Source: Bdellovibrionales bacterium (GTDB taxonomy: Bacteria > Bdellovibrionota > Bdellovibrionia > Bdellovibrionales > UBA1609). Taken from it: DNA of 64,000 nucleotides. The DNA is taken from contig CBDBBW010000007.1 of assembly GCA_965203225.1 (NCBI GenBank), forward strand, positions 7,122-71,121, given 5' to 3'. The position numbers and the translations under genes are program-made. Of this stretch, positions 391-44,278 are shown piece by piece (position 1 is the stretch's first letter; every line of letters begins with the position of its first letter). The notes below the pieces were generated by a model. It had not been told where the DNA came from, ran no database searches, and saw only the letters and a list, made by a program, of their open reading frames with translations.

Positions 391-1337
391 CCGAAAATAT
401 TTTCACCGGGTTTGCCTCTCATTTCCACTTCTATTTTGTCTCCCACCTTCATGAAATCGGTTTGTATATTACCTGTGTCGATTTTTTCCAACATTCTTTT
501 TTCCGCTATACAACTACAACCAACGGAAGTATCTTGGTTGGAAATAGTGCCGCTTCCAATGATAGTGCCTGCGCTCAAACTGCGAGTTTTGGCGGCATGG
601 GAAATAATCTGTCCGAAATGAAAGTGCATTTGACCGGAATCGGCCCGCCCGAAAGATTGATCGTTGAAATTAACCAACATAGGCAGATGAACGCGCCCGT
701 TTCTCCATGCCTCTCCCAACTCTTCTTTTGTCACGGCAAAAGGAGCAAAACTGCTGGAGGGTTTTCCTTGAAAAAATCCAAAACCCCTTTTTAGTTCATC
801 CGGGATAAGACCTCTGAGGGAAATATCATTTATAAGCACAAATAAAATAATATGGCTCAAAGCCTCTTCGGAAGATACACCCATATTAATATCGTCCACA
901 ATCACACCCACTTCCGCCTCGAAGTCCGTTCCATGAGAAAAATCCTCCTGTGGAATGTCATCCAAGGGGCCTAAAAAGGTGTCACTGCCGCCCTGGTAAA
1001 CAAGTGGAATGGTCTCCAATGTTTCAGGTAAAGGGGCGTTTCGAGCTTTGCGCACCAGTTTAATGTGTTGAATATAGGCGGAAGCATCTATCCATGAAAA
1101 ACTTCTGGGTAAAGGGGCAGTTAGTTTTTCAGGATTTATGGCAAAAGAAGAAGCCGCCTGTGAGTTATTTAACTGTTCATATAATGTCTCTAAAGCGGGT
1201 TTAACAACAGCCCAGTTTTCAATTGCCTCCCTCATAGAGCGGGCGATTTGTGTGGCGAACACTCCGGTTTTATTGTCTGAGGAAACCACAATCAGACTGG
1301 AGTCCCGGCAGGCGGATTTAACACTGGCTAATTTCAT
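345..1337 (-). CDS. Fumarylacetoacetate hydrolase (FAH) family protein
   Basis: 330-aa ORF. The C-terminal half shows an FAH-fold pattern (DFEAEVGVIV acidic metal-site run, GKPSSSFAPF, GTIIGSGT). Confidence 0.8.
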   Translation of the reverse strand: MKLASVKSACRDSSLIVVSSDNKTGVFATQIARSMREAIENWAVVKPALETLYEQLNNSQAASSFAINPEKLTAPLPRSFSWIDASAYIQHIKLVRKARNAPLPETLETIPLVYQGGSDTFLGPLDDIPQEDFSHGTDFEAEVGVIVDDINMGVSSEEALSHIILFVLINDISLRGLIPDELKRGFGFFQGKPSSSFAPFAVTKEELGEAWRNGRVHLPMLVNFNDQSFGRADSGQMHFHFGQIISHAAKTRSLSAGTIIGSGTISNQDTSVGCSCIAEKRMLEKIDTGNIQTDFMKVGDKIEVEMRGKPGENIFGTIRQKVVKWTPKSG

Positions 1338-2998: not shown

Positions 2999-3075
2999 CG
3001 GGGTGTAGCGCAGTCCGGTAGCGTGTCTCGTTCGGGACGAGAAGGTCGCTGGTTCAAATCCAGTCACCCCGACCA
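2999..3075 (+). tRNA. tRNA-Pro (anticodon CGG)
   Basis: Hand-folded cloverleaf: acceptor CGGGGTG/CACCCCG, anticodon stem TCTCG/CGAGA, loop TTCGGGA, T-arm GCTGG-TTCAAAT-CCAGT. Discriminator A and CCA are encoded. Confidence 0.9.
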
Positions 3076-4594: not shown

Positions 4595-5965
4595 TTATAT
4601 AAAAAGGCTTAAAGGGTTTTCTATTTTTTGAATAAAAAACTTAAGCGCCCGCGCCGACACCGCACCGTCAATCAACCGATGATCGCAGGTCAGGGAAAAA
4701 TTCATTGTCTTTTTGGGTATAAAAGCGGAACCATCCCAGCAGGGTTTCACATAAATACGATACATGCCCAAAATAGCGGACTCCGGCGCATTGATAATGG
4801 GAGTGGCGTATTCTCCCCCCAAACTGCCAATATTGGTGATGGTGACAGTGCCTTCACTCATCTCCTCCGGGGAAATACTCCCCGCTCGGGCTTTCTCCGC
4901 CAGAGTTTGAATTTCAAAACTCAGCTCCACCAGGGATTTTTCATCCACATTCTTTATCACCGGAACCAACAGGCCACGGGGAGTATCCACGGCAAAACCA
5001 AAATTATAATATTTTTTAATTACAATTTCTTTTGCAAAATCGTCAATACCAGCATTCAGTTCGGGAAACTCCCGCACCGCCTGTAAAAGACACTTCATTA
5101 CAAAAGAAAGATAGGTAACTTTTATGTTCCTTTCCTTGAGCATATCTTTAACGGAATTTTTCAGTTGGTCCAATCGCTCCACTTCTGCCGACTCCAGCAA
5201 GGTAAAATGAGGAATGACCACTTTGGAGGCTTGCATTTTTTCCGCTATTTTTTTTCTCACCCCTTTAAGAGGTCTTCGTTCCTGCCGGTCCTTCGCCGGA
5301 ATGAAAAACCCGTAATTTGTATCACTTTCCCGTGCTCTATCCGCCCCACCTCTGTCCACAGTGTCCGAAGAGAAATAAGGTACATCATTCAATGTACCGG
5401 CTGAAGACCGGCCGGAATATTTCAAAACATCTTCCTTGGTAACCCGACCGGATAAGCCAGAACCCACAATTTGGCTTAAGTTAACACCCAGCTCTCTTGC
5501 CAGCCGCCGGGTAAAAGGGGTCGCCAACACAGAAGAGTCCTCCGCCGATATATCCTCATCCATTGATTGCAGTTTTGGATCCGCACTAAGAGGCTTTACC
5601 GGATGAATGGATTTTAAAACCGGGCGGACAGACTGCTCGGAAACAGAAAGTTTTGAAATATTTTCCTCTTTATTTTCCTCTTTAGAACTTGTTTCTTTAT
5701 CAAGGCTTTTTATCATTAAAAGCCTTTGCCCCACCTGAACTGTCTCCCCCTCCCTGGCTGAAAAGGATTCTACGATTCCATCAAAAGGGGAGGGCACCTC
5801 CATAGAAGCTTTGTCGGTCATCACCTCCGCCACCGGTTGGTCAATCTGAACTGAATCCCCTTCGGAAACCAGCCACTTAACCAATTCCCCCTCCGTGACC
5901 CCTTCCCCCAGTTCCGGTAGTGTTATTTCCTGACTGTCCTCGGCAGATTTGTTTTTCATAACCAT
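4595..5965 (-). CDS. 2-oxoacid dehydrogenase E2 component (dihydrolipoamide acyltransferase)
   Basis: Lipoyl-attachment motif VMTDKASMEV, a peripheral subunit-binding region, and catalytic DHRLIDG near the C-terminus. Confidence 0.9.
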   Translation of the reverse strand: MVMKNKSAEDSQEITLPELGEGVTEGELVKWLVSEGDSVQIDQPVAEVMTDKASMEVPSPFDGIVESFSAREGETVQVGQRLLMIKSLDKETSSKEENKEENISKLSVSEQSVRPVLKSIHPVKPLSADPKLQSMDEDISAEDSSVLATPFTRRLARELGVNLSQIVGSGLSGRVTKEDVLKYSGRSSAGTLNDVPYFSSDTVDRGGADRARESDTNYGFFIPAKDRQERRPLKGVRKKIAEKMQASKVVIPHFTLLESAEVERLDQLKNSVKDMLKERNIKVTYLSFVMKCLLQAVREFPELNAGIDDFAKEIVIKKYYNFGFAVDTPRGLLVPVIKNVDEKSLVELSFEIQTLAEKARAGSISPEEMSEGTVTITNIGSLGGEYATPIINAPESAILGMYRIYVKPCWDGSAFIPKKTMNFSLTCDHRLIDGAVSARALKFFIQKIENPLSLFI

Positions 5966-6001: not shown

Positions 6002-6934
6002 TTATTTACCGTTCACTTTTAACAAAGCCTTCATAAAAAGCTCCCCGGCCCTGTAAGAGCTTCTCACCAAAGGACCACTGGCCACATAGAGAAAACCCTG
6101 TTGCAAAGCGTATTCCTTCCATTCATCAAATTTTCGGGGAGTAACATACTCCTCCACTGGCAAATGCCGTTTCCCAGGACGCAGATACTGACCAAATGTC
6201 ACAACATCACAACCCACCGAACGCAAGTCCCTTAAAGTGTCTTTTACCTCCACATCCCGCTCCCCCAAGCCCAGCATAATAGAGCTTTTTGTATAAATCC
6301 GCGCAGTCCTGCCGTTGCCAGCCTCTGTATGAAATTCCCTTTCTTTTTTAATCATCTCTAATATATTCAGGGATTGCCGGTAGCCAGCCCGGCGATCGCG
6401 CACCCGAGGAGTAAGACGCTGAACTGTCTCCACATTATGAGCAAATACATTCGGGCCAGCAGATACAATAGTTTTCACACAATCCCGCCGGCCTTTAAAA
6501 TCCGGAGTCAAAACCTCCACCAATAAATCCGGCGCTTTCTCCTTTAAGCACCGAATGGTCTTCGCGAAGTGACCGGCACCTTCGTCCGGCAAGTCATCCC
6601 GATCCACAGAAGTTAATACAACATACTCCAAACCCATTTGAGATACCGCTGTCGCCACTTTGACAGGCTCTTCTTCATCCAACCAAGCTTTAGGATTGCC
6701 TGTCTTGACATTACAAAAACGACATCCTCTGGTACAAATATCCCCCATTAACATAATAGTGGCCGTACCCCCGCCCCAACACTCCGCCATATTAGGGCAA
6801 CGCGCCTCCTGGCAAACAGTAACCAAATCCAGGGACTTCAGCAAACGACGAATACGAAAATATTTCTCCCCTGAAGGAAGCGGAACCTTTAGCCACTGAG
6901 GTTTTATCTTTTGTGCAGAGGAGATATGAGACAT
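6002..6934 (-). CDS. lipA: Lipoyl synthase
   Basis: [13 protein letters not shown] and radical-SAM CTRGCRFC cysteine clusters. 310 aa. Confidence 0.95.
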
Positions 6935-7069
6935 AGAATTCGTTTTAACACAAACAAGAAAAATATTTTATGATTTTTTGGACTTTGTTTTATTTCCTTG
7001 CTTCAAGCAAGCTGGTATCCCCCATGGACTCCCATTTTCTTTTATTGAAAATCAAGCCTTGTTTCAAGG

Positions 7070-7098
7070 CAACAAAAAGGGCCTGAAATTTCAGGCCC
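7070..7098 (-). terminator. Rho-independent terminator candidate downstream of the DsbA-like gene
   Basis: Perfect palindrome gggcctgaaatttcaggccc (7079-7098), followed on the minus strand by TTTTTGTT. A second small hairpin gccttgtttcaaggc sits just downstream. Confidence 0.55.
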
Positions 7099-7163
7099 TC
7101 AAAGTGCAATCAACTCTATCGGAAAATATTTATACTCTGGATTTTATTTTACGCTTAAGGTTT

Positions 7164-8105
7164 TCACTCCTTTTCATCCTCTGCTTTCTCTTCATCCTCT
7201 GCTTTCTCTTCATCCTCTGCTTTCTCTTTATCCTCTGCTTTCTCTTTATCCTCTGCTTTCTCTTTATCCTCTGCTTTCTCTTCTTCTTCTTCTTCTTCTT
7301 CTTCTTCTTCTTTCTCTTTCTTCATCTTAGCGACGTTTTTCAGCTTAGGCAGATGACAGTTTTCCAGAATTTTTTTAAATTCAGAAAAAGGCACGGCCCC
7401 CGGAACGGTTACACCTCCCACCAGGAAACCCGGAGTGCCGGAGAAGCCGAATTTTTCCGCTTCTTTCTTATCTGCTTCAATGATTCCTCCCACCAGGTTT
7501 AAATCCGTTTCCAATTTATTCATATCCACTTTCAAGGCTTTGGCCAATTCTTTGAAAAACTTATCTCCGTTTTTCACTTCACTTCTTCTTTTAAAAACCA
7601 TGTCATGAAAATCCTGGGCTGATTTTGAGTCCTGCATACCAATAGCTTCATAATATTCCGCCGCTTTGGCAGAACCAGGGAAAAGAGGCTTATGTTTATA
7701 AAGCACCCTCACCTGATCGGGGTATTTTTTTAAAACTTGCTTAATTGTGGGAGCCACTTTGGCGCAGTACCCACACTGAAAATCAGAGTATTCCACAATA
7801 GTGATAGGCGCGTCTTTGTTCCCAAAATATACACGGGAGTCTTTCATTTCCGGCTTTTTAGGATTTTTGCACTCAGCTTCTCGAGCGGCGATTTCTTTTT
7901 CCTGCTGTTTCTTTCTTCTGTTTACCATATACTCGCGCTGAGCTTCCGCCAAAGCATCCATATATAATACAGGATTACTCTTGATGGATTCCGTAATAAT
8001 TTCAGGATTATCCTTCAGCAGTTTCTTTAAAAAAGCCGGGCCACAGGAGGCTAAAAACGGCACGATACACATTATGAACAATAATTGAAAGTTTGTTTTT
8101 TTCAT
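7164..8105 (-). CDS. DsbA-family thiol:disulfide oxidoreductase lipoprotein with a long acidic repeat tail
   Basis: Lipobox LASC in the signal peptide and CXXC site FQCGYC. The C-terminal ~60 aa is poly-E plus (EKAEDK/E)n. Confidence 0.8.
   Translation of the reverse strand: MKKTNFQLLFIMCIVPFLASCGPAFLKKLLKDNPEIITESIKSNPVLYMDALAEAQREYMVNRRKKQQEKEIAAREAECKNPKKPEMKDSRVYFGNKDAPITIVEYSDFQCGYCAKVAPTIKQVLKKYPDQVRVLYKHKPLFPGSAKAAEYYEAIGMQDSKSAQDFHDMVFKRRSEVKNGDKFFKELAKALKVDMNKLETDLNLVGGIIEADKKEAEKFGFSGTPGFLVGGVTVPGAVPFSEFKKILENCHLPKLKNVAKMKKEKEEEEEEEEEEEKAEDKEKAEDKEKAEDKEKAEDEEKAEDEEKAEDEKE
7173..7312. repeat. Coding repeats: six 18-bp units, then a (TTC/GAA)n run of about a dozen copies
   Basis: tt[c/t]atcctctgctttctc x6, followed by ttcttcttc... 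Encodes the acidic tail of the DsbA-like protein. Confidence 0.9.
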
Positions 8106-11818: not shown

Positions 11819-12205
11819 ATGAAAGTATATTACAGCACAGGAAGAAGAAAAACCTCTTCTGCCCGAGTGTTCTTAAAACCGGGAACGGGAAAAATCACCA
11901 TTAACGGAAAAGACCCTAAGGTGTTTCTTCCCTATACCTCGAAAAGAATAGAAGCCTTAAGACCCCTGCACATCACAAAAGAAAGCAATTCCGTGGATCT
12001 TTACATCACCGTCAAAGGAGGAGGAATCACAGGGCAGTCCGAAGCCATTCGTCACGGTCTGGCCCGTGCCCTTACTGAATATTCTGCCGACCATCGCTCC
12101 ATCTTAAAAAAAGAGGGCCTGCTAACAAGAGACTCCCGAATGGTGGAGCGGAAAAAAGCCGGCTTTCACAAAGCCAGAAAAAGCACTCAGTTCACCAAAC
12201 GGTAA
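11819..12205 (+). CDS. rpsI: 30S ribosomal protein S9
   Basis: GRRKTSSARV..., GGGITGQSEAIRHGLARAL, C-terminal ...QFTKR. Confidence 0.95.
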   Translation: MKVYYSTGRRKTSSARVFLKPGTGKITINGKDPKVFLPYTSKRIEALRPLHITKESNSVDLYITVKGGGITGQSEAIRHGLARALTEYSADHRSILKKEGLLTRDSRMVERKKAGFHKARKSTQFTKR

Positions 12206-12225
12206 TACACAAAATTGATTCAAAA

Positions 12226-12462
12226 CGGACACAAAAATGCTTGTTCCAACAAGCAAGGCACTTAGAAACACAGAAAAAACAAGGGATTTCAACTGAAGGG
12301 GCATAAAAATGCCTGCTCCAACGAGCAAGACACTTAGAAACACAGAAAAAACAAGGGATTTCAACTGAACGAACAAGGGATTCCAACTGAACGGACACAA
12401 AAATGCCTGCTCCAACGAGCAAGACACTTAGAAACACAGAAAAAACAAGGGATTTCAACTGA
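12226..12462. repeat. Tandem repeat: three ~72-bp units plus one 22-bp partial unit in the rpsI/ribD convergent spacer
   Basis: Units at 12226-12296, 12297-12368 and 12391-12462. Each ends in caagggatttcaactga, which is copied from the ribD 3' coding end (12546-12564), and each contains a hairpin plus T-run on the minus strand. Confidence 0.9.
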
Positions 12463-12507
12463 AGGGAAGAGACAGCATTATCTTCCAAACAGAACCGAGT
12501 ATCCGCT

Positions 12508-13644
12508 TTACAGATTAAACAAAGCTTCCACAAGCAAATCGTCCCCAAGGGATTTCAACTGAACCGAATCCACAATCAAACTTTCAGAAAGACCTTGAAT
12601 CGTGAAATCCCTTGACCAATAAAGGCCCTCCCCCATAATCCGCGGAGCTATGTACAAGTAAAGTCTTTGAGCCGCTTTCTCCTTGAGAAACTGAGACCAG
12701 CAAAAAGCGCCTCCCTCTACCAGCACAGACTGGATTTGCTCTTCCTGATAGAGTCTTTTTAAAACAGCGGCCAAAGAAAAATTTTGCCGGGCCATTTTAA
12801 AGAATTTCAGCCGGACACCTAAGGCGGACAATACCATTGATTTTTTATTTGCCTTTTTCTCATGGGAACAGCAAAGAATCACCTGATCGGGAGAACGCGC
12901 CTGTAATACCCTGGACTGGAGCAAAAAGGAAAAACTTTTTCCCTTCGGATCCAAAATAACCACTTTATTTTCTTTACCCTTAAATGAATCCAAACGAATA
13001 TCCAAACGGGGGTTGTCTTTTAATAAAGTATCCGACCCGATCAGTACCGCCGAGTGGGCGGATCTTAAAAAGTGCGCATGCCGGCGAGCCAGCCATCCGG
13101 TAATCCACCGGCTTTCCCCTTTTTTTGTGGCAACCACTCCGTCCAAACTGGAAGCCACTTTTAAACTGACAAAAGATTTTTTATGTAAAAAAGAGAACTT
13201 AAAAGGCCTTATCAGGTTTTCCATCTCTTCCTGAAAGTCCGAGTTGTAAATAATTTCCACTCCTTTTCTGCGTAAATACTCCAAACCTTTTTTATCAGTA
13301 AAAGGATCCTCCGCTCCATAAGTGAGAGACCGGATAGGGTACCGTGCCAGCTCCTTTGAACAAGGGGAGGTTTTTCCCGTATGATGACAGGGTTCCAGGG
13401 TGAGAAAAACCCGCGCGCCGGTTAATTTTTTCTTATCCTTTATTTTTTTTAAAGCGCAGACCTCGGCATGATCGCTCCCATACGCTTTATGATAACCCTC
13501 AGCCAATAACCTGCCGTCAGAATCCAAAATCACACAACCCACAGGAGGGTTAGGTTCCACTCGACCTATGCCTTTTTTTGCCAACCGCAGGGCCAGGCGC
13601 AAGGCCTTTTTCGGAGAAAAACTTATTTCTGACACAATTTTCAA
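12508..13644 (-). CDS. ribD: Bifunctional riboflavin biosynthesis protein RibD (deaminase/reductase)
   Basis: Zinc deaminase motifs HAEVCAL and PCHHTGKTSPC, followed by a reductase domain. Confidence 0.9.
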   Translation of the reverse strand: MKIVSEISFSPKKALRLALRLAKKGIGRVEPNPPVGCVILDSDGRLLAEGYHKAYGSDHAEVCALKKIKDKKKLTGARVFLTLEPCHHTGKTSPCSKELARYPIRSLTYGAEDPFTDKKGLEYLRRKGVEIIYNSDFQEEMENLIRPFKFSFLHKKSFVSLKVASSLDGVVATKKGESRWITGWLARRHAHFLRSAHSAVLIGSDTLLKDNPRLDIRLDSFKGKENKVVILDPKGKSFSFLLQSRVLQARSPDQVILCCSHEKKANKKSMVLSALGVRLKFFKMARQNFSLAAVLKRLYQEEQIQSVLVEGGAFCWSQFLKEKAAQRLYLYIAPRIMGEGLYWSRDFTIQGLSESLIVDSVQLKSLGDDLLVEALFNL

Positions 13645-13690: not shown

Positions 13691-14800
13691 TTAAGTTAAA
13701 AAACCTCTTTGTATTTGATCTCTTTCAATAGCGTCAAAGAGAGCTTGAAAATTTCCCTCTCCAAAACCATCATGTCCCCGACGCCGAATGACCTCATAAA
13801 ACACAGGACCTATAACATTCTTTGTAAAAATCTGAAGCAGGTAACCTTGTTCATCTCCGTCTGCCAGAATTTTATTTTCCCGCAAATCATTCAAATTCTC
13901 TTTCACCTGAGGAACTCTTTTGGACAAATCCTCATAATAAGTATCCGGCACATTCAAAAAATCAATCCCGGCAGAGCGCAATTTTTTTACCGAAGACACA
14001 ATATCCTGGGTTGTTAAAGCAATATGCTGGATGCCAGAGCCTTTGTACTCCTCTAAAAACTCCTGAATTTGTGATTTTTTCCCTTTTTCCCCTTCAGCCG
14101 GTTCGTTAATGGGAATAGTGATGGTGTTGCATGGAGAGCGCATGACTTTTGAAATGAGGCCGGTTTTGCTTCCCTGAATATCAAAATAGCGTCTTTCCGT
14201 GAAATTAAAAATCTCCTGATAAAAGTCACACCATTTTTGCATATCCCCCTGAGGGACATTGTGGGTCAGGTGGTCCACCGCAAGCAGTCCGGCCGAAGAA
14301 CCAACCAGCTTCCCCGAATTTTCAGAAACAGAAGGCGAAATACCAAACTCTGTTTCGAAATGAGAAACATCTTCTTCCACAAAATAAATCAACGAACAGC
14401 CTACACCGTATATGGCGGGAAAGCTATGGCTTTGCTTATCCGGGGGCACTGCCTCCGCTCCTTTGGATAAAACATACTCAAAAGCTTTTTTGGAGGAATG
14501 CACTCGAAAAGCCAAAGCGCATATTGAAGGACCATGTTGATCAGAAAAATTTTCAGCAAAGGTGTTCTTCTCCCGATTTAAAATAAAATAGGTATAACCC
14601 TGTAGAAACAAATCCACTTCTTTACTTTTATGCTTACCTTTGTGAATAAAGCCCATTGATTTCCAAAGCTGAACCAGCTTTTCAGGGTGAGGACTGCTAT
14701 ATTCTATAAAATCAATTCCCTTTAAACCAACCGGGTTTTCTTTTGAAGACATAACTGTTTTCTCCCAAAGCCCATTAGAAAAGAATAGCTCAATGGCCAT
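13691..14800 (-). CDS. hppD: 4-hydroxyphenylpyruvate dioxygenase
   Basis: Two-VOC-domain architecture, NEP...SQIQEFL and GIQHIAL iron-site region, C-terminal FGEGNFQALFDAIE. An alternative start at 14752 (MSSKENP...) has a GGGAG RBS. Confidence 0.9.
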   Translation of the reverse strand: MAIELFFSNGLWEKTVMSSKENPVGLKGIDFIEYSSPHPEKLVQLWKSMGFIHKGKHKSKEVDLFLQGYTYFILNREKNTFAENFSDQHGPSICALAFRVHSSKKAFEYVLSKGAEAVPPDKQSHSFPAIYGVGCSLIYFVEEDVSHFETEFGISPSVSENSGKLVGSSAGLLAVDHLTHNVPQGDMQKWCDFYQEIFNFTERRYFDIQGSKTGLISKVMRSPCNTITIPINEPAEGEKGKKSQIQEFLEEYKGSGIQHIALTTQDIVSSVKKLRSAGIDFLNVPDTYYEDLSKRVPQVKENLNDLRENKILADGDEQGYLLQIFTKNVIGPVFYEVIRRRGHDGFGEGNFQALFDAIERDQIQRGFLT

Positions 14801-14942: not shown

Positions 14943-15851
14943 TCAATAAACACCGGGAACAGAGAGCTTTGCGGGCAGGCAATGATTGAGTCTTTTCTCA
15001 AGAAAACGAGTGGTTTTTATCAACTCCGGTATTTGCACCCCGGTTTGAAATTTCATTTTCTCCAGCATATAAGTCAGGTCCTCCGTGGCCACATTGCCGC
15101 TTGCCCCCGGGGCGTAAGGACAGCCCCCCATGCCTCCAATACTGGCATCAAACACTCTCACTCCGCTTTGTAAGCCCCCGGCCACATTGGCTAAAGCCAT
15201 TCCCCGGGTATTATGAAAATGTAAAGCCACCTTCTTCACCGGAATTTTTTTCCCAAGAATATTCATCAAGTTCAACACATCTGTGTAAACCGCCGCCCCG
15301 ATAGTATCACTCACGGACAATTCAAACGCCCCTGCTTCCATAATCCGTGCCGCCAAAACAGTCACGCTAGAAGGGCGTATTTTTCCTTCATACGGGCAGA
15401 CAAAAGCAACGCTCAAGTAAACTCGCACTTTTATTTTTAACCGCCGTGCTCTTCGACAAATAATCCGGAGGTTTTTTATACTGGCTTTGACACTCATATT
15501 GATATTTTGTTCCGAAAAAGACTCTGTACAGGAAACAAAAAAAGAAACCTCCTTTAACCCGCACTCCACCGCTTTTTCAAAACCGATTTGATTGGGAACA
15601 AAAGCGGAGTACACTATATCATGTGGAAGAATACCTTTTTCCTGAGAACGCAAAACTTTTTTCACCAGAAAAGGCACGCACTGCATTTGAGGAATGGCTT
15701 TAGGAGATACAAAAGAACCCAGCTCCATTCTTTTCAAACCAGCCCTGGACAGCTTTTTCACTGTCTGATAACGATTTATAAGAGACAAGCCATTTTTTTC
15801 GTTTTGCAAGCCATCTCTTAAACCCACTTCCACAATTTGAACTGTGGGCAT
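14943..15851 (-). CDS. liuE: Hydroxymethylglutaryl-CoA lyase
   Basis: VEVGLRDGLQNE, HFHNTRGMALANV, GGCPYAPGASGNV. Start placed at 15851 because GGAGGAG lies 7 nt upstream. Confidence 0.9.
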   Translation of the reverse strand: MPTVQIVEVGLRDGLQNEKNGLSLINRYQTVKKLSRAGLKRMELGSFVSPKAIPQMQCVPFLVKKVLRSQEKGILPHDIVYSAFVPNQIGFEKAVECGLKEVSFFVSCTESFSEQNINMSVKASIKNLRIICRRARRLKIKVRVYLSVAFVCPYEGKIRPSSVTVLAARIMEAGAFELSVSDTIGAAVYTDVLNLMNILGKKIPVKKVALHFHNTRGMALANVAGGLQSGVRVFDASIGGMGGCPYAPGASGNVATEDLTYMLEKMKFQTGVQIPELIKTTRFLEKRLNHCLPAKLSVPGVY

Positions 15852-16052
15852 AAAATACTCCTCCATAACCGGAACATTCTTCGCTTAATAAATAAACCAG
15901 CGGGAGTGAAAAATCAATTTCCACCTGGCAAAAATATTTCATTTAAACCACATCCCTATTTTATTTTCCGACACTGTTGGGATTTTGTTCTCCCTTCATC
16001 ACCTTTTATCATCTGGCTGTGAACCAACATATTTAAACCGGCTGGAAAAAAA

Positions 16053-16430
16053 TTACTTCCTTGCTATTTCCACCAACTCCTGATCGGCAGACACCCTTTC
16101 CCCTTCCCGCACATTTACTGACTTCACCACTCCTTTTCCAGGGGATTTTACAGTGTATTCCATTTTCATAGAGGAGAGAATCAATAAAGTCTGATTATCC
16201 CTCACTTTATCATTTTGTTGAACCAAAACCCTGACAATCTGCCCGGGCATGGGAGACAAAACCAAATGCTCGTCAATCTCTTCATTTTTTTGACCAACAG
16301 CAGAGGATGATTTTTTTTGTTTATCCAAAACAAATATTTTTCCATTGAAATGAAACCATATTTGGTTTTTCAACTTCTGCGCTTTTATCAAAAACACCTT
16401 GTCTTTTACCACCACTTCAATACGTTTCAT
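16053..16430 (-). CDS. liuD: Biotin carboxyl carrier (BCCP) portion of methylcrotonyl-CoA carboxylase alpha, as a separate ORF
   Basis: Biotinyl-lysine motif SSMKMEY in a C-terminal lipoyl/biotinyl fold. The N-terminal ~45 aa resemble the end of a BT domain. Confidence 0.75.
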   Translation of the reverse strand: MKRIEVVVKDKVFLIKAQKLKNQIWFHFNGKIFVLDKQKKSSSAVGQKNEEIDEHLVLSPMPGQIVRVLVQQNDKVRDNQTLLILSSMKMEYTVKSPGKGVVKSVNVREGERVSADQELVEIARK

Positions 16431-16489
16431 TGTCTTTTACCACCACTGTTTTTATCTTAATTTTTACCAACCACCCCGGTCTTTATCTT

Positions 16490-18007
16490 TCAAGTGACTT
16501 TTTTTGAAAAATGCGTCCAGGGATTAAAATGTTTTTTCCCCATTTGCTGACTTATATATGAATCAGATACAGGGGGGAAAAAAGACTGACGAAGAGAGGA
16601 GAGAATCACCGGATCCAAGGACTCCACATTTTCGTCTTTCCAGGATTTTAAAAACACTTCTTCCACAAAACGGGTATAAACCTCCCCATTAATAAAACGC
16701 TCATGGGAAAGCAAATCCTGCAAAAAAGACAGATTGACTTTCAAACCAAAAATAATTGTGTCGCTGAGCGCCTGTTTCATTTTCTCCACTGCCCGCGGGC
16801 GGTTTTCGTCCCACACAATCAATTTGCCTAACATAGCGTCGTAAAACCCGGGGACTTCATCTCCGGATTCATAGCCCATATCGAAGCGGCGATGAACCCC
16901 TTGAGGAAAAGAGCAGGCTCCCAAGGTGCCAAAAACCGGCGCCTGTTTTTGCATATCCTCTGCATAAATTCGGCACTGAATACTGTGACCACGCGGTTTA
17001 AATTCCTTTTGAATAAATGGGGCAAATGGGGCATAGCCTTGAGCTGTCAAAAGCTGTGCCCGGATTAAGTCCACCCCTAATATCATTTCCGTTACGGGAC
17101 ACTCCACTTGAATACGAGGATTGACTTCCATAAAGTAAAACTCTCCGTTGTGATACAAAAACTCTACCGTGCCGGCCTGCAAATAACCCACTGATTTTAA
17201 AAGCTTTATGGCCAAGGATCTCATCTCCTGTTGAACAGACAAAGGCAATAAAGCCGGCGCCTCCTCAATGATTTTTTGATGTTTTCTTTGAAGGGAACAA
17301 TCCCGATCAAACAGATGAAACACCCGCCCCGAAACATCCGCAAAAACCTGCACTTCTATATGCCGGGCGGAAGACAAATATTTTTCAATAAATATTTCAG
17401 AAGAACCAAATGCGGATTGGCATTCCCTTTGAGCGGACGCAAAAGCCTCCGACCATTGTTCCCTGGAGAAAACAATTCTAAGTCCGCGCCCCCCTCCTCC
17501 TCTTGCAGATTTAATCATAACCGGAAATCCTATTTTACAAGCCTCCGATAATAATTGAGCTTCGTGTTCTTTCGCCTCCCCCTTCGGAAACCCGGTATAA
17601 GCGGGCAATACGGGAAGGCCGCATTTGATTGCCTGTGCGTGAGCCAGTTTTTTATTTCCAAAAATTTCAAGACAGTTTTCAGGAGGGCCGACAAAAATAA
17701 TATTGTTTTCCCGACAGGCTTTGGCCAGCCCGGCATTTTCAGACAAAAATCCGTAACCGGGATGAAGAGCGTCTGCCCCCATGCTTAAAGCGCCTTCCAA
17801 CACAGAAGGGATATTCAGGTAGCTTTTTTCCGCTTCCGACGGGCCTATGCACACTTTTTCGTGGCTCATACGGCAAGGCAGACTGTTCCGGTCTGCGGAA
17901 GAATAAAGCAACACCGGTGTTATTCCCATCTCCCGGCAAGTGGAAATCAACCGAACCGCTATTTCCCCCCTATTGGCGATAGCTATTCTTTTTATTGTTT
18001 TGTACAT
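16490..18007 (-). CDS. liuD: Biotin carboxylase portion of methylcrotonyl-CoA carboxylase alpha
   Basis: IAIANRGEIAVR, ATP-grasp GGGGRGLR, EVNPRIQVE. 505 aa, ending before the BCCP domain. Confidence 0.9.
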   Translation of the reverse strand: MYKTIKRIAIANRGEIAVRLISTCREMGITPVLLYSSADRNSLPCRMSHEKVCIGPSEAEKSYLNIPSVLEGALSMGADALHPGYGFLSENAGLAKACRENNIIFVGPPENCLEIFGNKKLAHAQAIKCGLPVLPAYTGFPKGEAKEHEAQLLSEACKIGFPVMIKSARGGGGRGLRIVFSREQWSEAFASAQRECQSAFGSSEIFIEKYLSSARHIEVQVFADVSGRVFHLFDRDCSLQRKHQKIIEEAPALLPLSVQQEMRSLAIKLLKSVGYLQAGTVEFLYHNGEFYFMEVNPRIQVECPVTEMILGVDLIRAQLLTAQGYAPFAPFIQKEFKPRGHSIQCRIYAEDMQKQAPVFGTLGACSFPQGVHRRFDMGYESGDEVPGFYDAMLGKLIVWDENRPRAVEKMKQALSDTIIFGLKVNLSFLQDLLSHERFINGEVYTRFVEEVFLKSWKDENVESLDPVILSSLRQSFFPPVSDSYISQQMGKKHFNPWTHFSKKVT

Positions 18008-18245
18008 ATTTGCTCTTTACCATTTCATATCCAATGTTTGTGGAAATCAACCGAACCGCTATTTCCCCCCTATTGGCGATAGCTATTCTTTTTATTGTTT
18101 TGTACATATTTGCTCTTTACCATTTCATATCCAATGTTTGTGGAAATCAACCGAACCGCTATTTCCCCCCTATTGGCCGATAGCTATTCTCTTTATTGTT
18201 TTGTACATATATATTGCTCTTTACCATTTCATGTGCAATCTTTGT
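17941..18245. repeat. Tandem repeat of exactly 100 bp x3 covering the RBS, ATG and first 23 codons of the biotin carboxylase gene
   Basis: tggaaatcaaccgaaccgctatttcccccctattggcgatagc... begins at 17941, 18041 and 18141. The third copy is slightly diverged. Confidence 0.95.
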
Positions 18246-18340
18246 GGACGAACTTCTTAATAAAGAAGTTCAGTGTCACTTTTATTATAAGCTCTTCCAA
18301 TATCAAGAACAAAATACACGAGCAAGACATTATATTACCC

Positions 18341-19114
18341 TTAATTTTGATTTAAAAGATTTTTGATTCTTTGTCTGGCGGATTTGCTTTTTCTAAACTC
18401 ACTGATAATACGCACACATTCTTTTTTTACCTCCCCGGACAAGTCCGCACCGGAAGAGCGGGTGGAAAGAAAGTTGAGCCATTTTTTTGTTTTGGCCACA
18501 GCGGAAGAATCCAACTCTTTAAAATTCTTCAACAGTATTTCAAGAAAATCGTCGCACTCTTTTTTTGAACCCGTAAAGTGTACTAAATTCATTTCCCGCG
18601 CCTGCCGGGCAGAAAAAGGAAGCGCGCTCAACATTAAAAATCTGGCTTGAGACAAACCGATTTTTTTTAAAACAAACGGGCTTATAATGGAAGGAACTAA
18701 CCCCAGTCTGGTCTCACTAAAGCAAAATCGGGAGTCCTCCTCCGCGATAACCACATCCGCAACAGAAAGCAATCCCAATCCCCCTCCCACAGCAAAGCCA
18801 TGAACCAAAGCCAGCACCGGCAGGGGACAGGACTCTACAGCCTCCAACAACAAAAACAAGCTTTTCAGTTTCTCCTCTGTAAAAAGAGACTCTTCCGCCA
18901 TCCACTTTAAGTCTGCTCCACTGCAAAAGGATTTTCCCGCTCCCGACAACACAATAGTTTTTATGGAAGAATCCCATTGCTTTTCTTCAAAAAAAACCAG
19001 CAATTCGCCAATGAGCTGAGGATCGAGTGCGTTTCTTTTTTCAGGGCGGTTCAGCGTGACAAAAACAACTCCCTTTCCTGTTTTAATTTTTAAAATTGCG
19101 TTTTTTTGATCCAT
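18341..19114 (-). CDS. liuC: Enoyl-CoA hydratase family protein (probable methylglutaconyl-CoA hydratase)
   Basis: VTLNRPEKRNAL and GAGKSFCSGADL crotonase motifs. Start trimmed to MDQKNAILK (19114; alternative 19138) to avoid overlapping liuB. Confidence 0.8.
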   Translation of the reverse strand: MDQKNAILKIKTGKGVVFVTLNRPEKRNALDPQLIGELLVFFEEKQWDSSIKTIVLSGAGKSFCSGADLKWMAEESLFTEEKLKSLFLLLEAVESCPLPVLALVHGFAVGGGLGLLSVADVVIAEEDSRFCFSETRLGLVPSIISPFVLKKIGLSQARFLMLSALPFSARQAREMNLVHFTGSKKECDDFLEILLKNFKELDSSAVAKTKKWLNFLSTRSSGADLSGEVKKECVRIISEFRKSKSARQRIKNLLNQN

Positions 19115-19151
19115 AAAACAACTTTCTCCGAGTTCCATCCCCTTAAAAAAA

Positions 19152-20735
19152 TCACATTCGATAAACACCTTTAGACTTGTCCTCCAGGGGAGCGTAAAGG
19201 GAGGCATCCAGACCCAAAGCCAACACCTTTCTGGTATCCAAAGGATCAATAATACCATCATCCCACAAACGGGCGGTGGAGTAGTAAGCTGAACTTTGTT
19301 TATCGTATTGTTCCTTTAAACTACCTTGCTCATCCTCTTTTTTTTGCTCCTTATGACCTGCTTTGCCGGCTGAAATGGACTGAAGCACTTTTTTCGCCTG
19401 CGGCCCACCCATCACCGCAATACGGGCTGAAGGCCACATCCAGAGCTGACGGGGTTGATAAGCTCGCCCACACATCCCGTAATTGCCGGCTCCATAGGAA
19501 GCGCCCACAACAACTGTAAACTTAGGCACCCGCGCCAGACTGACCGCGGTCACCATTTTTGCCCCCTGTTTTGTAATGCCTGCGCTCTCATACTGCCTGC
19601 CCACCATAAAGCCCACAATGTTTTGCAGAAACAAAAGAGAAATACCCCGTTGATCACATAAATCAATAAAATGAGCCGCTTTTAAAGCGGATTCACTGAA
19701 CAAAACTCCGTTGTTGGCCAGTATCCCCACCGGGTGCCCGCACAGATGCGCCCATCCTGTCACCAAAGTGGTTCCGTAGTTTTTTTTAAACTCATGCAGT
19801 TCAGAACCATCCACCAAGCGCGCTATAACTTCCTTTATATCAAAAGCTGTTTTCAAATCCGATGAAACAATGCCGTACATCTCCTCAGCTGGATAAAGAG
19901 GGGGGACACTCTTTCGCAAAACTTGTGTTCGCCTATGGAAAAAACCCAAATGTGATATAATATCGCGCGCCTTTTCCAAAGCCTGATCCTCGTCATTGAC
20001 TACATGATCACTCACTCCGGACTGCGAACTGTGTAACACGGCTCCTCCCAGCTCTTCCGCACTGACCTTTTCCCCGGTAGCGGCCTCCACTAAAGGAGGA
20101 CCTCCCAAAAAAATAGTGCCAGCTCCTTTGACGATAACATTTTCATCAGACATGGCAGGCACATAAGCCCCCCCTGCCGTACAGTACCCCAAAACCACAG
20201 CGACCTGGGAAATCCCCCTGGCCGTCATACGAGCCTGATTGAAAAAAATTCTTCCAAAATGATCCCGATCGGGAAAAACCTCATCCTGATAATGCAAATA
20301 GGCTCCACCGCTATCCACCAGATAAATACAAGGAAGATGATTTTCCAAAGCAATTTCCTGTGCGCGCAAATGTTTTTTAATCGTAATGGGGAAATAGGCA
20401 CCGCCTTTCACTCTTGCATCATTAGCCACCACCACAACAGGACGACCATGCACAACAATCACCCCTGTCACTATACCGGCAGAGGGTATATTCTCCCTGT
20501 AAAGCCCTCTCCCGGCCAGAGCGGAAAACTCCAAAAAGCAGGTGCCGGGATCCTTCAGCTTTTCAATTCTTTCTCTAACCAAATATTTTTTATTTTGAAT
20601 CCGAGCACTTTGCCGACTGGCACCGGTTTTGGCCAACTCCATCACTTTTTTCAGTTCCTCAACCTTTTGTTTCATAAATTGAAAGTTATGTTTAAAAGTT
20701 TCCGACTGACTGTCTATATGTGTTTTTAAAATCAA
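19152..20735 (-). CDS. liuB: Methylcrotonyl-CoA carboxylase beta (carboxyltransferase) subunit
   Basis: 527-aa carboxyltransferase with two crotonase-like halves ([37 protein letters not shown]). Sits in liuB-C-D-E order. Confidence 0.9.
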
Positions 20736-20905: not shown

Positions 20906-21892
20906 TTGATTTTTCATAATAATACTGGCTTGATTTGGCCTTTAAAACAAGCCATACTATTTTATATGAACAAAGAATTTTTACTAAAACTGAAAACTTA
21001 TCGTTTTCGCATCCTGGCCGGAGCACTTTTTTGCGTTTTTTTAATCAGCACCTGGTTTATACTACATAAACGACCCACTTACCCGGAAGAATTACATATC
21101 AGCCTGCAAAATCAGTTAAAAGTCATCATACAGGAAGCCCTTATTCAGAAGACACCACAAATTCAGAATTTTCAGTTTCAAAAAATGTGGACACAATCCA
21201 CGAACAAGCGAAATCAAATCAGCGCCCATTTCAAATACTCCTTTAATGACGAAACGGATACAAAACTCTCCATAGAAGGCCTGGCCCTGATGAATCAACA
21301 AAGTTTAAATTCCTCCACGGAACAGGAATTATGGAGCGTGGATCACATCGAAATCAACCACACCAAACTGGATTTTAAGGAGCCTGTTCTTTTGTTTTCA
21401 GGTAAAAGCTCCGGGGAGTCCCTGGAGAAACCGGAGTCAACAGAAGAGACAAGCGATTCCACTGACTTTCCCGCTGACACAAAGGAAATGAAAGAAAGAA
21501 CAGAAACAAAAAAGACAGAAAACAAAAAAGCAAAACCGGATAAAACTGAAAACAAACAGGAAAACAAACAAGCAAAAGACATAAAAAAAGACGACTTACA
21601 AGAAGTCGATTCACAAAGGCCGGAGCGGAAAAAAGAAAAAAAACCGGATCAAAAAGAAGAGCAGGCCCAAGAGCAAAAAACAGATCAAAAAGAAGAACAG
21701 GCTCAAAAGCAAAAACCGGATCAAAAAGAAGAGCAAGCCCAAAAGCAAAAACCGGATCAAAAAGAACCTCGGGATCAATCGAACCAGTCGGGACAGGAAC
21801 AAGCTACTGAAAAATCAGAAAAGCCGGCCATTCAAAATACCGATGAATCCCCAAAAAAATCCACTGACTCCGACGATAAAGAAAAAAAATGA
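20906..21892 (+). CDS. Hypothetical membrane-anchored protein with a K/E/Q-rich repetitive tail
   Basis: One N-terminal TM (ILAGALFCVFLISTWFIL). The C-terminus carries 36-bp repeats (21644-21766) encoding PDQKEEQAQKQK. The likely start is ATG 20966. Confidence 0.5.
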   Translation: MIFHNNTGLIWPLKQAILFYMNKEFLLKLKTYRFRILAGALFCVFLISTWFILHKRPTYPEELHISLQNQLKVIIQEALIQKTPQIQNFQFQKMWTQSTNKRNQISAHFKYSFNDETDTKLSIEGLALMNQQSLNSSTEQELWSVDHIEINHTKLDFKEPVLLFSGKSSGESLEKPESTEETSDSTDFPADTKEMKERTETKKTENKKAKPDKTENKQENKQAKDIKKDDLQEVDSQRPERKKEKKPDQKEEQAQEQKTDQKEEQAQKQKPDQKEEQAQKQKPDQKEPRDQSNQSGQEQATEKSEKPAIQNTDESPKKSTDSDDKEKK

Positions 21893-22510: not shown

Positions 22511-22925
22511 AAGAGGGGATTGCCGGGTGATCGCTGAACTTTTCCCTGTAAATACCGATCACGGTATAAGCGGGTGCCAAAGCCAATTTGTCAATCACGA
22601 ACTGGCTATAAAAATTCAGAGGAAAGTCCGGACTCCAATATGGCAGCGTAAAAGGTGAAAACCTTTCCACTCTGAAGACAGCTTTTGCCGTCTCCAAGGT
22701 GAGGACAAGTGGAACAGAAAGTATATCCGGATTTTTTTCATCAAGATGGAAAAAATTGCTGGAGTGAAATCAGCTAAACTCTGCGCGGAGCAAGGTCAAA
22801 TAGGAAAGCGTCTGAGTCAAGCCATGACAAGCTTTCGGGTTGACCGCAAAGATAAATGCTCACCTCCTCCCGCTTGAACCGGTTGAGCGGGAGCAGACAG
22901 AATCCGGCTTACAGCAATCCCCTTC
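22511..22925 (+). ncRNA. rnpB: RNase P RNA (bacterial type A)
   Basis: Conserved blocks GAGGAAAGTCCGGACTCC, AAACTCTGCGCGGAGCAAGGTCAAATAGG and ACAGAATCCGGCTTAC. P1 pairing: gaggggattgc (5') with gcaatcccctt (3'). Confidence 0.88.
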
Positions 22926-22947
22926 AACCGGTTTTATATTTAAAAAC

Positions 22948-23021
22948 TGATGGCGGTAGGATTCGAACCTACGACCTACAGCTTAGAAGGCTGTTGCTCT
23001 ATCCAGCTAAGCTACGCCACC
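22948..23021 (-). tRNA. tRNA-Arg (anticodon UCU)
   Basis: Hand-folded: acceptor GGTGGCG/CGCCATC, D-arm GCTT-AGCTGGATA-GAGC, anticodon stem ACAGC/GCTGT with loop CTTCTAA, T-arm GTAGG-TTCGAAT-CCTAC. CCA is not encoded. Confidence 0.9.
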
Positions 23022-24969: not shown

Positions 24970-25502
24970 AGCAATCGCCTATATTGACAGTTTTAATCTT
25001 TTTTACGATACTTTAAAAAAGAGTCCTATAAATTAACTTGGAAGCTCTGATAAAAAATATCTCTTCTGACTATTATTTGTATTAAATACTTTTACAGCCC
25101 GCATATCTTCGTTATCACAAAACTAAAAAACTCCCATAAAAAATATCTCTTCTGACTATTATTTGTATTAAATACTTTTACAGCCCGCATATCTTCGTTA
25201 TCACAAAATTAGAAAGCTCCCATTCACCAAGCACTTTATCTTAGAGCTTTAAAAACTCTGAAAAATATTCAAACTTATGACGGTCATTTTTTAGCTCATA
25301 TAGTCTTATGCCTTTAATCACAAAAGACTATTCTATGTCCGTCGTTCAGGCCCGTCTCGAATATGCAGAACAGAAAACAACTCAAGTGTACGCACAGACT
25401 GTGGCTTTCTTGAGTTCAAAGACAGGAGAAAAAACAGCTTCTATTGTTTTCAAAGACAGTCGTCTTATAAATCGGTTTTTTTTAGTGTACAGGAGTTTTT
25501 AA
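24965..25502 (+). pseudogene. Degraded NYN-domain protein gene (extent approximate)
   Basis: MRAIAYIDSFNLFYDTLKKSP matches the MRxAxYIDGFNLYY start of NYN-domain proteins. Frame-shifted pieces IKYF(T)AR... and YLRALKTLKNIQTYDGHFLAH follow. Contains stops, frameshifts and an 86-bp internal duplication. Confidence 0.55.
25050..25208. repeat. Tandem duplication, 73-bp unit, period 86 bp, inside the NYN pseudogene
   Basis: ataaaaaatatctcttctgactattatttgtattaaatacttttacagcccgcatatcttcgttatcacaaaa occurs at 25050-25122 and 25136-25208. Confidence 0.9.
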
Positions 25503-31742: not shown

Positions 31743-33308
31743 TCATATGGTTTTTAAGAAAGCCTGAGCCTGAGCATCACCTTGTTTAGCCGCTTTTTCA
31801 AACAACTCTATTCCTCGCTGTATATCTTGCTCCACTCCTTCTCCCTTACAATACATCGCAGCTAAGAAAGTCTGAGCTGGAGCAAAACCTTTTTCAGCCG
31901 CTTTTTCAAACAACTCTCTTGCTCGATGTCTATCCTGCTCCACTCCTTTTCCATCAAAATACATCACAGCTAAGGCATGCTGAGCTGGAGCAAAACCTTG
32001 TTTAGCTGCTTTTTCATACCACTCTCTTGCTCGATTTATATCTTGCTCCACTCCCTCTCCCTTATAATACATCACAGCTAAGTTACTCTGAGCTGGAGCA
32101 TCACCTTGTTTAGCTGCTTTTTCAAACAACTCTATTCCTCGATTTATATCTTGCTCCACTCCTTCTCCCTCATAATACATCACAGCTAAGGCATGCTGAG
32201 CTGGAGCATCACCTTGTTTAGCCGCTTTTTCATACCACTCTATTCCTCGATTTATATCTTGCTCCACTCCTTCTCCCTCATAATACATCACAGCTAAGGC
32301 ATGCTGAGCCAGAGCAAAACCTTGTTTAGCCGCTTTTTCAAACAACTCTATTCCTCGCTGTATATCTTGCTCCACTCCTTCTCCCTTACAATACATCACA
32401 GCTAAGGCATGCTGAGCCAGAGCAAAACCTTTTTCAGCCGCTTTTTCAAACAACTCTATTCCTCGCTGTATATCTTGCTTCACTCCTTCTCCCTTACAAT
32501 ACATCACAGCTAAGGCATGCTGAGCTGGAGCAACATCTTGTTTAGCCGCTTTTTCATACCACTCTCTTGCTCGATGTATATCTTGCTCCACTCCTTCTCC
32601 ATTAGAATATATATCAGCTAAGTTATACTGAGCTGGAGCAAAACCTCGTTTAGCCGCTTTTTCATACCACTTTATTCCTCGATGTCTATCTTGCTCCACT
32701 CCTTTTCCATCAAAATATATCACAGCTAAGGCATGCTGAGCTGGAGCAACACCTTGTTTAGCCGCTTTTTCAAACAACTCTATTCCTCGATGTATATCTT
32801 GCTCCACTCCTTCTCCCTTAGAATACATCTGAGCTAAGTTATACTGAGCTGGAGCAAAACCTCGTTTAGCCGCTTTTTCATACCACTCTCTTGCTCGATG
32901 TATATCTTGCTCCACTCCTTCTCCATTAGAATATATATCAGCTAAGTTAAACTGAGCTGGAGCAAAACCTTGTTTAGCCGCTTTTTCCAACCACTCTATT
33001 CCTCGATGTCTATCTTGCTCCCCTCCTTCTCCCAGATAATACATCGCAGCTAAGGCATGCTGAGCTGGAGCAACACCTTTTTCAGCCGCTTTTTCAAACA
33101 ACTTTCTTTTTCTTGCTCTACGATGTCTATCTTGCTCCCCTCCTTTACTGTGGATTAAGTTACAGAGACTCACTCCATTATAATGTATCAAAGCAGTGTT
33201 ATACTGATACTGAGCATAACGTTGTTTAGCCAATCTTTTAGAGTTGCACAGAAAAAGCTTAACAGCTCTTAACAAGGATTTTAATGCGCTTGGTTTTTTT
33301 ATCATCAT
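31743..33308 (-). CDS. Sel1-like repeat (SLR) protein, 12 full 36-aa repeats plus degenerate flanking repeats
   Basis: Repeating APAQxxLAxMYxxGEGVEQDxxRxxEWYEKAAKQG consensus. DNA repeats of 108 bp are near-identical. Confidence 0.9.
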   Translation of the reverse strand: MMIKKPSALKSLLRAVKLFLCNSKRLAKQRYAQYQYNTALIHYNGVSLCNLIHSKGGEQDRHRRARKRKLFEKAAEKGVAPAQHALAAMYYLGEGGEQDRHRGIEWLEKAAKQGFAPAQFNLADIYSNGEGVEQDIHRAREWYEKAAKRGFAPAQYNLAQMYSKGEGVEQDIHRGIELFEKAAKQGVAPAQHALAVIYFDGKGVEQDRHRGIKWYEKAAKRGFAPAQYNLADIYSNGEGVEQDIHRAREWYEKAAKQDVAPAQHALAVMYCKGEGVKQDIQRGIELFEKAAEKGFALAQHALAVMYCKGEGVEQDIQRGIELFEKAAKQGFALAQHALAVMYYEGEGVEQDINRGIEWYEKAAKQGDAPAQHALAVMYYEGEGVEQDINRGIELFEKAAKQGDAPAQSNLAVMYYKGEGVEQDINRAREWYEKAAKQGFAPAQHALAVMYFDGKGVEQDRHRARELFEKAAEKGFAPAQTFLAAMYCKGEGVEQDIQRGIELFEKAAKQGDAQAQAFLKTI

Positions 33309-44275: not shown

Positions 44276-44278
44276 TGT

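Follow-up and report, generated by a model that had tools for sequence, protein, structure and literature searches.

The 64-kb window analysed here, a 64,000-nucleotide stretch of contig CBDBBW010000007.1 from a Bdellovibrionales bacterium, contains a biotin carboxylase gene whose translation-initiation region has been multiplied by a tandem array of three ~100-bp units. We read this array as the outcome of recent tandem duplication, mediated by microhomology, in a lineage prone to repeats; it would be tolerated because it leaves the gene intact, and would have at most a modest effect on translation of the gene, and we put the probability of this reading at about 0.7. The array is thus most likely a young, locally generated minisatellite, produced by mutation pressure and a selective filter and not evolved as a regulatory device. 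A first-pass annotation of the same DNA had missed the context that accounts for it best, namely the TCCAC microhomology at its borders, the six other arrays in the same window and the independent arrays in the corresponding operon of relatives.

Structure of the array

Tandem Repeats Finder (TRF) detected one tandem array at this position (period 100, 3.0 copies, 96% matches, score 554). Its parts, together with the adjoining features, are as follows.

17940-18248, minus strand: the whole array, three head-to-tail units of ~100 bp plus a 5-bp terminal microhomology
17941-18040, minus strand: unit 1, the functional copy, made up of a 33-nt leader and the initial 22 codons, which begin with the genuine ATG (18007-18005), and continuing into the biotin carboxylase open reading frame (ORF)
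18041-18140, minus strand: unit 2, a decoy initiation region 100% identical to unit 1
18141-18244, minus strand: unit 3, an older, degenerate copy of 104 nt, placed by MAFFT alignment with units 1 and 2
18244-18248, minus strand: TCCAC microhomology at the upstream border, from the unit alignment
18250-18271, no strand: perfect palindrome with 9-bp arms, GAACTTCTT-AATA-AAGAAGTTC, located in the gap that follows the stop codon of the hydratase gene and directly abutting the upstream array border
16490-18007, minus strand: intact biotin carboxylase gene, 505 aa (NCBIfam biotin-carboxylase models, E 1e-152)

On the minus (coding) strand, the unit reads AAACATTGGATATGAAATGGTAAAGAGCAAAT-ATG-TACAAAACAATAAAAAGAATAGCTATCGCCAATAGGGGGGAAATAGCGGTTCGGTTGATTTCCAC, that is, 33 nt of leader followed by 67 nt of coding sequence from the ATG onward, or 22 full codons and 1 nt. 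The alignment of the units and their ORFs bear out the earlier observation that the translation-initiation region of this gene has been multiplied. As for the description of the array as an exact 100-bp repeat present three times, the three copies and the period of 100 hold, but only two of the copies are exact. Units 1 (18040..17941) and 2 (18140..18041) are the same base for base, whereas unit 3, the most upstream, differs from them in the MAFFT alignment by 4 substitutions and 2 indels, these being 3 nt (TAT) inserted immediately 5' of its ATG and a single G inserted in codon 11. The least secure details of the array are this one-base insertion and how many of the copies are exact. The first-pass annotation had also counted 23 codons in each unit, one more than the unit holds; the shared TCCAC pentamer makes codon 23 a Thr codon in either context.

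This pentamer occurs at 18248-18244, 18144-18140, 18044-18040 and 17944-17940, and so marks both outer borders and both junctions, where the sequence runs ...TTTCCAC/AAACATTGG.... A 58-nt core of the unit matches at only two places in the 64-kb window, both of them within the array, against 0.00 expected from shuffled sequence, and the array is therefore not a product of chance. The palindrome next to the array is present in a single copy in the window and is not followed by a T-run. The start at 18007, as annotated in the first pass, is confirmed by the reading frame itself: the open frame cannot be extended beyond 18016, so that 18007 is the first possible ATG.

The unit derives from the start of the gene itself

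We then compared the start of the gene with that of its homologues. The closest relatives are Bdellovibrionales metagenome-assembled genomes (MAGs) with 57-77% protein identity, each of which has one copy of the start region; it is single-copy in all eleven of the closest loci (L001-L011) as well as in locus L161, whose operon has the same gene order. The N-termini of these relatives read MYKTIKK(I/L)AIANRGEIAVRLIST or near variants of it, and the N-terminus encoded by unit 1, MYKTIKRIAIANRGEIAVRLIST, matches them. Since the unit consists of the gene's own leader and its conserved N-terminal codons, it is a local copy and was not imported, and an origin from a mobile element, a miniature inverted-repeat transposable element (MITE) or a repetitive extragenic palindromic (REP) sequence is ruled out on the same ground.

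In the window, 333 nt separate the hydratase stop codon from the biotin carboxylase ATG, as compared with ~35-170 nt in relatives that have the hydratase directly upstream (47 nt in L161, from called genes). An upstream ORF derived from a duplicated start is absent from these short gaps at the same gene in relatives. The upstream ORFs described below are therefore not conserved leader peptides.

Proposed origin of the array

Short direct repeats spaced one period apart are a classic substrate, and a classic scar, of slipped-strand or microhomology-mediated duplication by RecA-independent slipped misalignment. In the present case, a TCCAC pentamer in the leader and a second one 100 bp away, at codons 22-23, would have served as the sites of replication slippage or unequal exchange, with duplication of the leader and the 22 codons that follow it. 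The neighbouring 22-bp palindrome may have contributed by favouring stalling or misalignment. At least two events would be required, an older duplication and then, very recently, the expansion or homogenisation of the two units nearest the gene. The first would be the older because copy 3 has since gained its 4 substitutions and 2 indels, and the second would be very recent because copy 2 equals copy 1. Such an array can persist because an intact copy always remains when only one of the two endpoints of a duplication falls within a gene; here this would be the 3'-most unit, which is joined to the complete ORF. The array combines a head-to-tail arrangement at constant period, microhomology at its borders and junctions and a locally derived unit, as minisatellites do.

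Tandem arrays across the window and the lineage

The array at the biotin carboxylase gene is one of seven in the window with a period of at least 40 bp. The six others have various periods and identities of 86-98%.

37-391: 195 bp x 1.8, 96% identity; the second copy covers the last 47 nt of the fumarylacetoacetate hydrolase gene (345-1337, minus strand)
12233-12463: nested arrays of 72, 94 and 22 bp, in a gap on which rpsI (11819-12205) and a ribD-like gene (12508-13644) converge
17940-18248: 100 bp x 3.0, in the hydratase/biotin carboxylase gap and at the gene start
25050-25223: 86 bp x 2, intergenic, young
31764-33103: 108 bp x 12.4, inside a Sel1-repeat protein gene
39023-39132: 55 bp x 2.1, young, overlapping the 3' end of a 2-hydroxyacid dehydrogenase gene by 24 nt
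44041-44295: nested arrays of 88 and 67 bp, young, sharing 17 nt with the 3' end of the gene for a family-5 solute-binding protein

Several of these have peculiarities of their own. At 37-391 the 3' end of a gene has been duplicated into the intergenic region, while the nested array at 12233-12463 yields spurious repeat-encoded ORFs at 12122-12548 (minus strand). The Sel1 protein (521 aa, 31743-33308, minus strand) contains 12 Sel1 repeats (Pfam E 1e-147), and the corresponding DNA units are 87% identical. Sel1-repeat proteins are common in bacteria that interact with eukaryotic hosts.

The same TRF settings were applied to all fetched loci, again for periods of at least 40 bp, which gave the following densities.

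Window: 7 arrays in 64 kb, 10.9 per 100 kb
Eleven closest relatives (L001-L011): 7 arrays in 134 kb, 5.2 per 100 kb
More distant Bdellovibrionales loci: 0 arrays in 106 kb, 0 per 100 kb
All other loci around homologous genes: 5 arrays in 1.25 Mb, 0.40 per 100 kb

Taken together, the window and its close relatives have 14 arrays in 198 kb, against 5 in 1.36 Mb for the two control sets combined, a rate ratio of 19 (binomial p = 2e-9). Furthermore, the period of the arrays depends on where they lie: it is divisible by 3 in all six of the arrays that fall wholly within long open frames and in only one of the ten that are intergenic or at gene edges (Fisher p = 9e-4). Two of the sixteen arrays in this second test were added by hand, so the density and period statistics rest on slightly different sets. 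The pattern fits the expected footprint of a high, position-blind rate of duplication that is filtered by purifying selection.

Relatives also have arrays within the same operon, and these are independent of the one described here. In L001, three ~64-bp copies of the hydratase 3' end occupy the same intergenic spot (5800-5961). In L002, a 62-bp x 4.6 array directly follows the carboxyltransferase stop codon (4854-5143), and an exact in-frame 81-bp duplication lies inside the gene for the biotin carboxyl carrier protein (BCCP; 7765-7963), the product of which has 194 aa instead of ~125-129 aa. Together with the microhomology and the six other arrays of the window, these independent arrays point to a mutational process that acts throughout the lineage and not to a device for this gene. 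On our preferred reading, these small-genome Bdellovibrionales undergo tandem duplication of 40-200 bp at an unusually high rate, and the array is one of its many products.

Upstream ORFs and their likely effect on translation

Each of the two extra units opens an ORF upstream of the gene.

17970-18107, minus strand: unit 2 upstream ORF, 45 codons (MYKTIKRIAIANRGEIAVRLISTNIGYEMVKSKYVQNNKKNSYRQ, then stop), ATG at 18107; crosses the genuine ribosome-binding site out of frame
18170-18208, minus strand: unit 3 upstream ORF, 12 codons (MYKTIKRIAIGQ, then stop), ATG at 18208; shortened by the 1-nt insertion

Both ORFs had been recognised in the first pass, and their lengths and frames stand as given there, as does the unit 2 start at 18107; the ORF of unit 2 ends at 17970 and thereby overlaps the genuine ORF by 38 nt. 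The initiation region of unit 2 equals the genuine one across -33 to +67. The mean unpaired probability predicted at the two starts is nearly the same (0.67 for the genuine start and 0.68 for unit 2), and at the start of unit 3 it is 0.25. For the genuine start, the prediction changes little between the three-unit leader (0.67) and a reconstructed single-copy leader (0.70), and given values so close to each other the extra copies are not expected to mask the genuine start by RNA structure.

The gene spacing of relatives, which is that of one operon, and the position of the sole promoter-like match, upstream of the array, suggest that an mRNA reaching the carboxylase should carry all three units. 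On such an operon mRNA, unit 2 would present a full-strength decoy start, from which ribosomes would make a 45-aa junk peptide: initiating at 18107, they would read across the genuine start in another frame and stop 38 nt into the gene. Coupling by termination and reinitiation is known to drop steeply with the extent of overlap and is absent at -25 nt (work summarised by Brown and Wade, PMC12548453), and the stop-start spacing of -38 nt found for unit 2 falls outside the range of about -4 to +25 nt that we took for this process. An upstream ribosome-binding site nearby has been reported to occlude the main one through the ribosomes that it recruits (PMC13285730). Because coupling is absent at -25 nt, occlusion has been reported and accessibility is predicted to be unchanged, our best estimate is that the upstream ORFs would cause mild interference with initiation at the biotin carboxylase gene, or have no effect on it, rather than activate it. 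The strong change in translation envisaged in the first pass is conjecture. Unit 3 probably contributes little and would be nearly silent, since its ORF is frameshifted (12 codons in all) and most of its start region is predicted to be base-paired.

Two other routes by which the units might act were also considered. A programmed frameshift from the unit 2 ORF into the main ORF was rejected from the reading of the sequence, in which the AAA-AAG run in the frame of the unit 2 ORF would have to support a +1 shift and not the -1 shift that such a run promotes. Nor is this a phase-variable contingency locus, because the last unit and the sequence after it contain the whole of the genuine ORF with its ATG, and the number of units leaves the frame of the gene unaltered; the promoter scan found no site within the array.

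We also weighed the view that the array is a functional translational regulator, in which the upstream ORFs tune biotin carboxylase, BCCP and lyase relative to the carboxyltransferase, by occlusion or by termination-reinitiation, and in which the gain and loss of units sets the output like a heritable copy-number rheostat. This is an unlikely explanation, even though unit 2 has the start context and predicted accessibility of the genuine start, its ORF runs over that start, upstream ORFs and ribosome-binding sites are able to couple or occlude (PMC12548453, PMC13285730) and exact 100-bp repeats are intrinsically unstable, so that their copy number probably varies. The arrangement is conserved in no relative, the overlap of 38 nt lies beyond the range of efficient coupling, and decay is under way in copy 3, which has a frameshift as well as a start that is predicted to be paired. 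In addition, similar arrays occur at functionally unrelated places, such as the 3' ends of genes and convergent intergenic regions, and a location at the start of a gene therefore needs no functional explanation. Still more speculative, and in our view a long shot, is the idea that small-genome, probably host-associated Bdellovibrionales combine a high rate of 40-200 bp duplication, for example through the loss of replication or repair functions that suppress slippage, with the use of start-multiplying arrays as fast, reversible copy-number rheostats of operon subunit stoichiometry.

Points that weigh against the interpretation, and the integrity of the assembly

Several considerations tell against reading the array as a tolerated product of a lineage-wide duplication process. 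We infer its neutrality. Most of what sets unit 3 apart falls in the 33-nt leader, which has 3 of the substitutions and the 3-nt indel, and the 67-nt coding part has only 1 substitution and the 1-nt indel; such a skew could hint at selection on a working leader, with numbers that are too small to carry the point. The density comparison was made on 13-kb loci around a single gene and not on whole genomes. Finally, the exact protein is found on a single contig and the metagenome scans returned nothing close to it, so that copy number and any polymorphism have to be judged from one sequence.

Among 5.8 billion proteins searched, the source protein was the sole exact match, on one contig of 1.27 Mb, and the next relative was 75% identical. 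Exact-protein look-ups with biotin carboxylase and BCCP (some queries including the stop codon, and the clean P0001 query too) gave no match, the junction 33-mer was not found in metagenome contigs, and protein-based scans of genome and metagenome collections yielded no relative above 77% identity.

It seems reasonable to ask, then, whether the array might be an artefact of assembly or consensus calling, such that the true number of units is one or some other number, or the diverged copy is a strain variant that was stitched in tandem. The assembly is that of an uncultured organism for which only MAG relatives were found; two perfectly identical copies are the hardest case for the resolution of copy number, and the 1-nt G insertion in copy 3 resembles the indel errors of long reads. 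Even so, we regard an artefact as quite improbable. The junction sequence must exist in reads in order to be assembled, and the presence of the exact protein on a single contig of 1,265,094 bp would imply long reads that span the 305-bp array. The six other arrays of the window differ in period and range from 86 to 98% identity, comparable arrays are present in megabase-scale assemblies of relatives, and the substitutions that set copy 3 apart from copies 1 and 2 are atypical of assembly noise.

Transcription signals and leader structure

The first-pass annotation had raised the possibility that a promoter lies within the unit and has been triplicated with it. The area contains a single match of sigma-70 type:

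18329-18356, minus strand: TTTAAA-16-TATAAT, the only sigma-70-like promoter match in the area, overlapping the stop codon of the hydratase gene, with all three units downstream of it

The scan found this 1 site against 2.2 expected in shuffled sequence, and the match is no better than chance; inside the array, the scan found no promoter-like site on either strand. With only 33 nt ahead of each ATG, a promoter within the unit is thus unlikely, and of the earlier interpretation as a whole it is the multiplied initiation regions and the upstream ORFs that stand, and the promoter in the unit that finds no support. Candidates read by hand (TTGTTC-17-TATAAT and, at the junctions, TTGATT/TATGAA) were weak and failed the criteria of the scan. 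That the array multiplies a promoter or an operator, with the unit carrying a transcription signal or a regulator site, is highly improbable: the array does abut a perfect palindrome that is a possible operator, and its junctions do create new sequence, yet the palindrome is single-copy and outside the repeated unit, neither strand of the array has a promoter-like site, two-thirds of the unit codes for a conserved N-terminus, and the short gaps between the two genes in relatives are as expected for one operon.

The palindrome itself could serve as an operator or form a hairpin that promotes slippage. As an intrinsic terminator between the hydratase and carboxylase genes it lacks a T-run and was not called, and its single copy in the window speaks against a recurring operator motif. 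An Rfam search found no match in the leader, the fold of which is not unusually structured (z = -1.22), and a structured RNA or riboswitch in the leader was ruled out on these two results.

The biotin carboxylase gene and its operon

On the minus strand, the genes run in the order carboxyltransferase, enoyl-CoA hydratase, array, biotin carboxylase, BCCP, 3-hydroxy-3-methylglutaryl-CoA (HMG-CoA) lyase and 4-hydroxyphenylpyruvate dioxygenase.

19152-20735, minus strand: carboxyltransferase (NCBIfam)
18341-19261, minus strand: enoyl-CoA (methylglutaconyl-CoA-type) hydratase (NCBIfam), directly upstream in the operon
16053-16430, minus strand: separate BCCP, 125 aa (NCBIfam)
14943-15866, minus strand: HMG-CoA lyase (NCBIfam; score 328.5, above the curated cut-off of 246)
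13691-14800, minus strand: 4-hydroxyphenylpyruvate dioxygenase
Split biotin carboxylase and BCCP pairs: window 16053-18007; L161 3001-4873; L002 6001-8083

The biotin carboxylase scores below the NCBIfam accC equivalog cut-offs. Its product is probably the biotin-carboxylase part (alpha subunit) of an acyl-CoA carboxylase of the 3-methylcrotonyl-CoA type; this specificity is probable from the operon context and from the names given to homologues at their source, the Joint Genome Institute (JGI) calling them '3-methylcrotonyl-CoA carboxylase alpha subunit'. Biotin carboxylase, BCCP, carboxyltransferase, hydratase and HMG-CoA lyase occur together, in the same order in L161, and by this gene content the operon is assigned to the leucine-catabolism (liu) type. 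The first-pass identification of the gene as a biotin carboxylase in such an operon accordingly agrees with the NCBIfam matches and the gene order.

Throughout the clade, the alpha subunit is split, with biotin carboxylase (~500 aa) and BCCP (~125 aa) encoded by separate genes in place of a fused single subunit, and the biotin carboxylase has a C-terminal extension of ~50 aa past the accC models. The longest ORF of the hydratase (18341-19261, minus strand) has 306 aa and overlaps the carboxyltransferase gene by 110 nt. The hydratases of relatives are only 249-250 aa long, and matches to the family set in at about residue 51-62, so that translation probably starts in fact at the ATG near 19114 (MDQKNAIL...).

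Genes of tyrosine and homogentisate catabolism flank the operon, namely the 4-hydroxyphenylpyruvate dioxygenase listed above and, elsewhere in the window, the fumarylacetoacetate hydrolase at 345-1337; L161 has HgmA at 6110-7491. These flanking genes point to an amino-acid-degrading lifestyle that has been kept in a genome of ~1.3 Mb. Divergent from the operon start is an ORF rich in K, E and Q and of low complexity (20906-21892, plus strand), in which KPDQKEEQAQKQ units are encoded by an in-frame 36-bp x 3.6 repeat (21639-21766). Across the whole window, Rfam matched only a bacterial class A RNase P RNA (22515-22926, 152.9 bits) and two tRNA genes (22948-23021 and 2999-3072).

Significance and comparison with known systems

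What is unusual here is the place and not the type of mutation: a tandem duplication has multiplied a full translation start, the gene has survived, and its own codons have given rise to out-of-frame decoy ORFs. Of broader interest is the pattern across the lineage, with ~19 times as many arrays as at the comparison loci and periods divisible by 3 inside genes. If whole genomes confirm it, the clade would offer a natural system in which to study the rise and decay of short tandem duplications and their effects on operon expression. There is also a warning for annotation, as such arrays generate spurious ORFs and ambiguous start sites.

Among known repeats, mycobacterial interspersed repetitive units (MIRUs; PMC12548453) likewise consist of tandem units of ~50-100 bp in operon gaps, with small ORFs that meet the start of the downstream gene. 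They form a dispersed and apparently mobile family, however, with an ORF coupled at -4 nt, whereas the unit described here is a unique local copy, its core being confined to the array within the 64 kb searched, and its ORF stops 38 nt inside the gene.

A second parallel is offered by Portiera, the endosymbiont of the whitefly Bemisia tabaci, for which Sloan and Moran (2013, PMC3673631) report a proliferation of intergenic tandem repeats alongside the loss of replication and repair genes. Portiera resembles the present case in a lineage-wide excess of young tandem repeats, enlarged intergenic regions and a small genome; its repeats are described as short (microsatellites), in contrast to the periods of 40-195 bp found in these Bdellovibrionales MAGs.

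Regulatory upstream ORFs and ribosome-binding sites (PMC13285730, PMC12548453) likewise involve initiation upstream of a gene with an ORF that runs over the main start. Those known are conserved, specific sequences, whereas the one in unit 2 is an accidental, out-of-frame copy of the main start.

With the minisatellites, or variable-number tandem repeats (VNTRs), of bacteria, the array shares head-to-tail copies at a constant period, a direct repeat at borders and junctions, a local unit and a mixture of exact and decayed copies. Polymorphism in copy number is the practical hallmark of VNTRs, and the array described here is known from one sequence. It differs from a typical minisatellite or VNTR in that its unit spans the whole translation-initiation region and 22 codons of the gene, such that each extra copy presents a decoy start.

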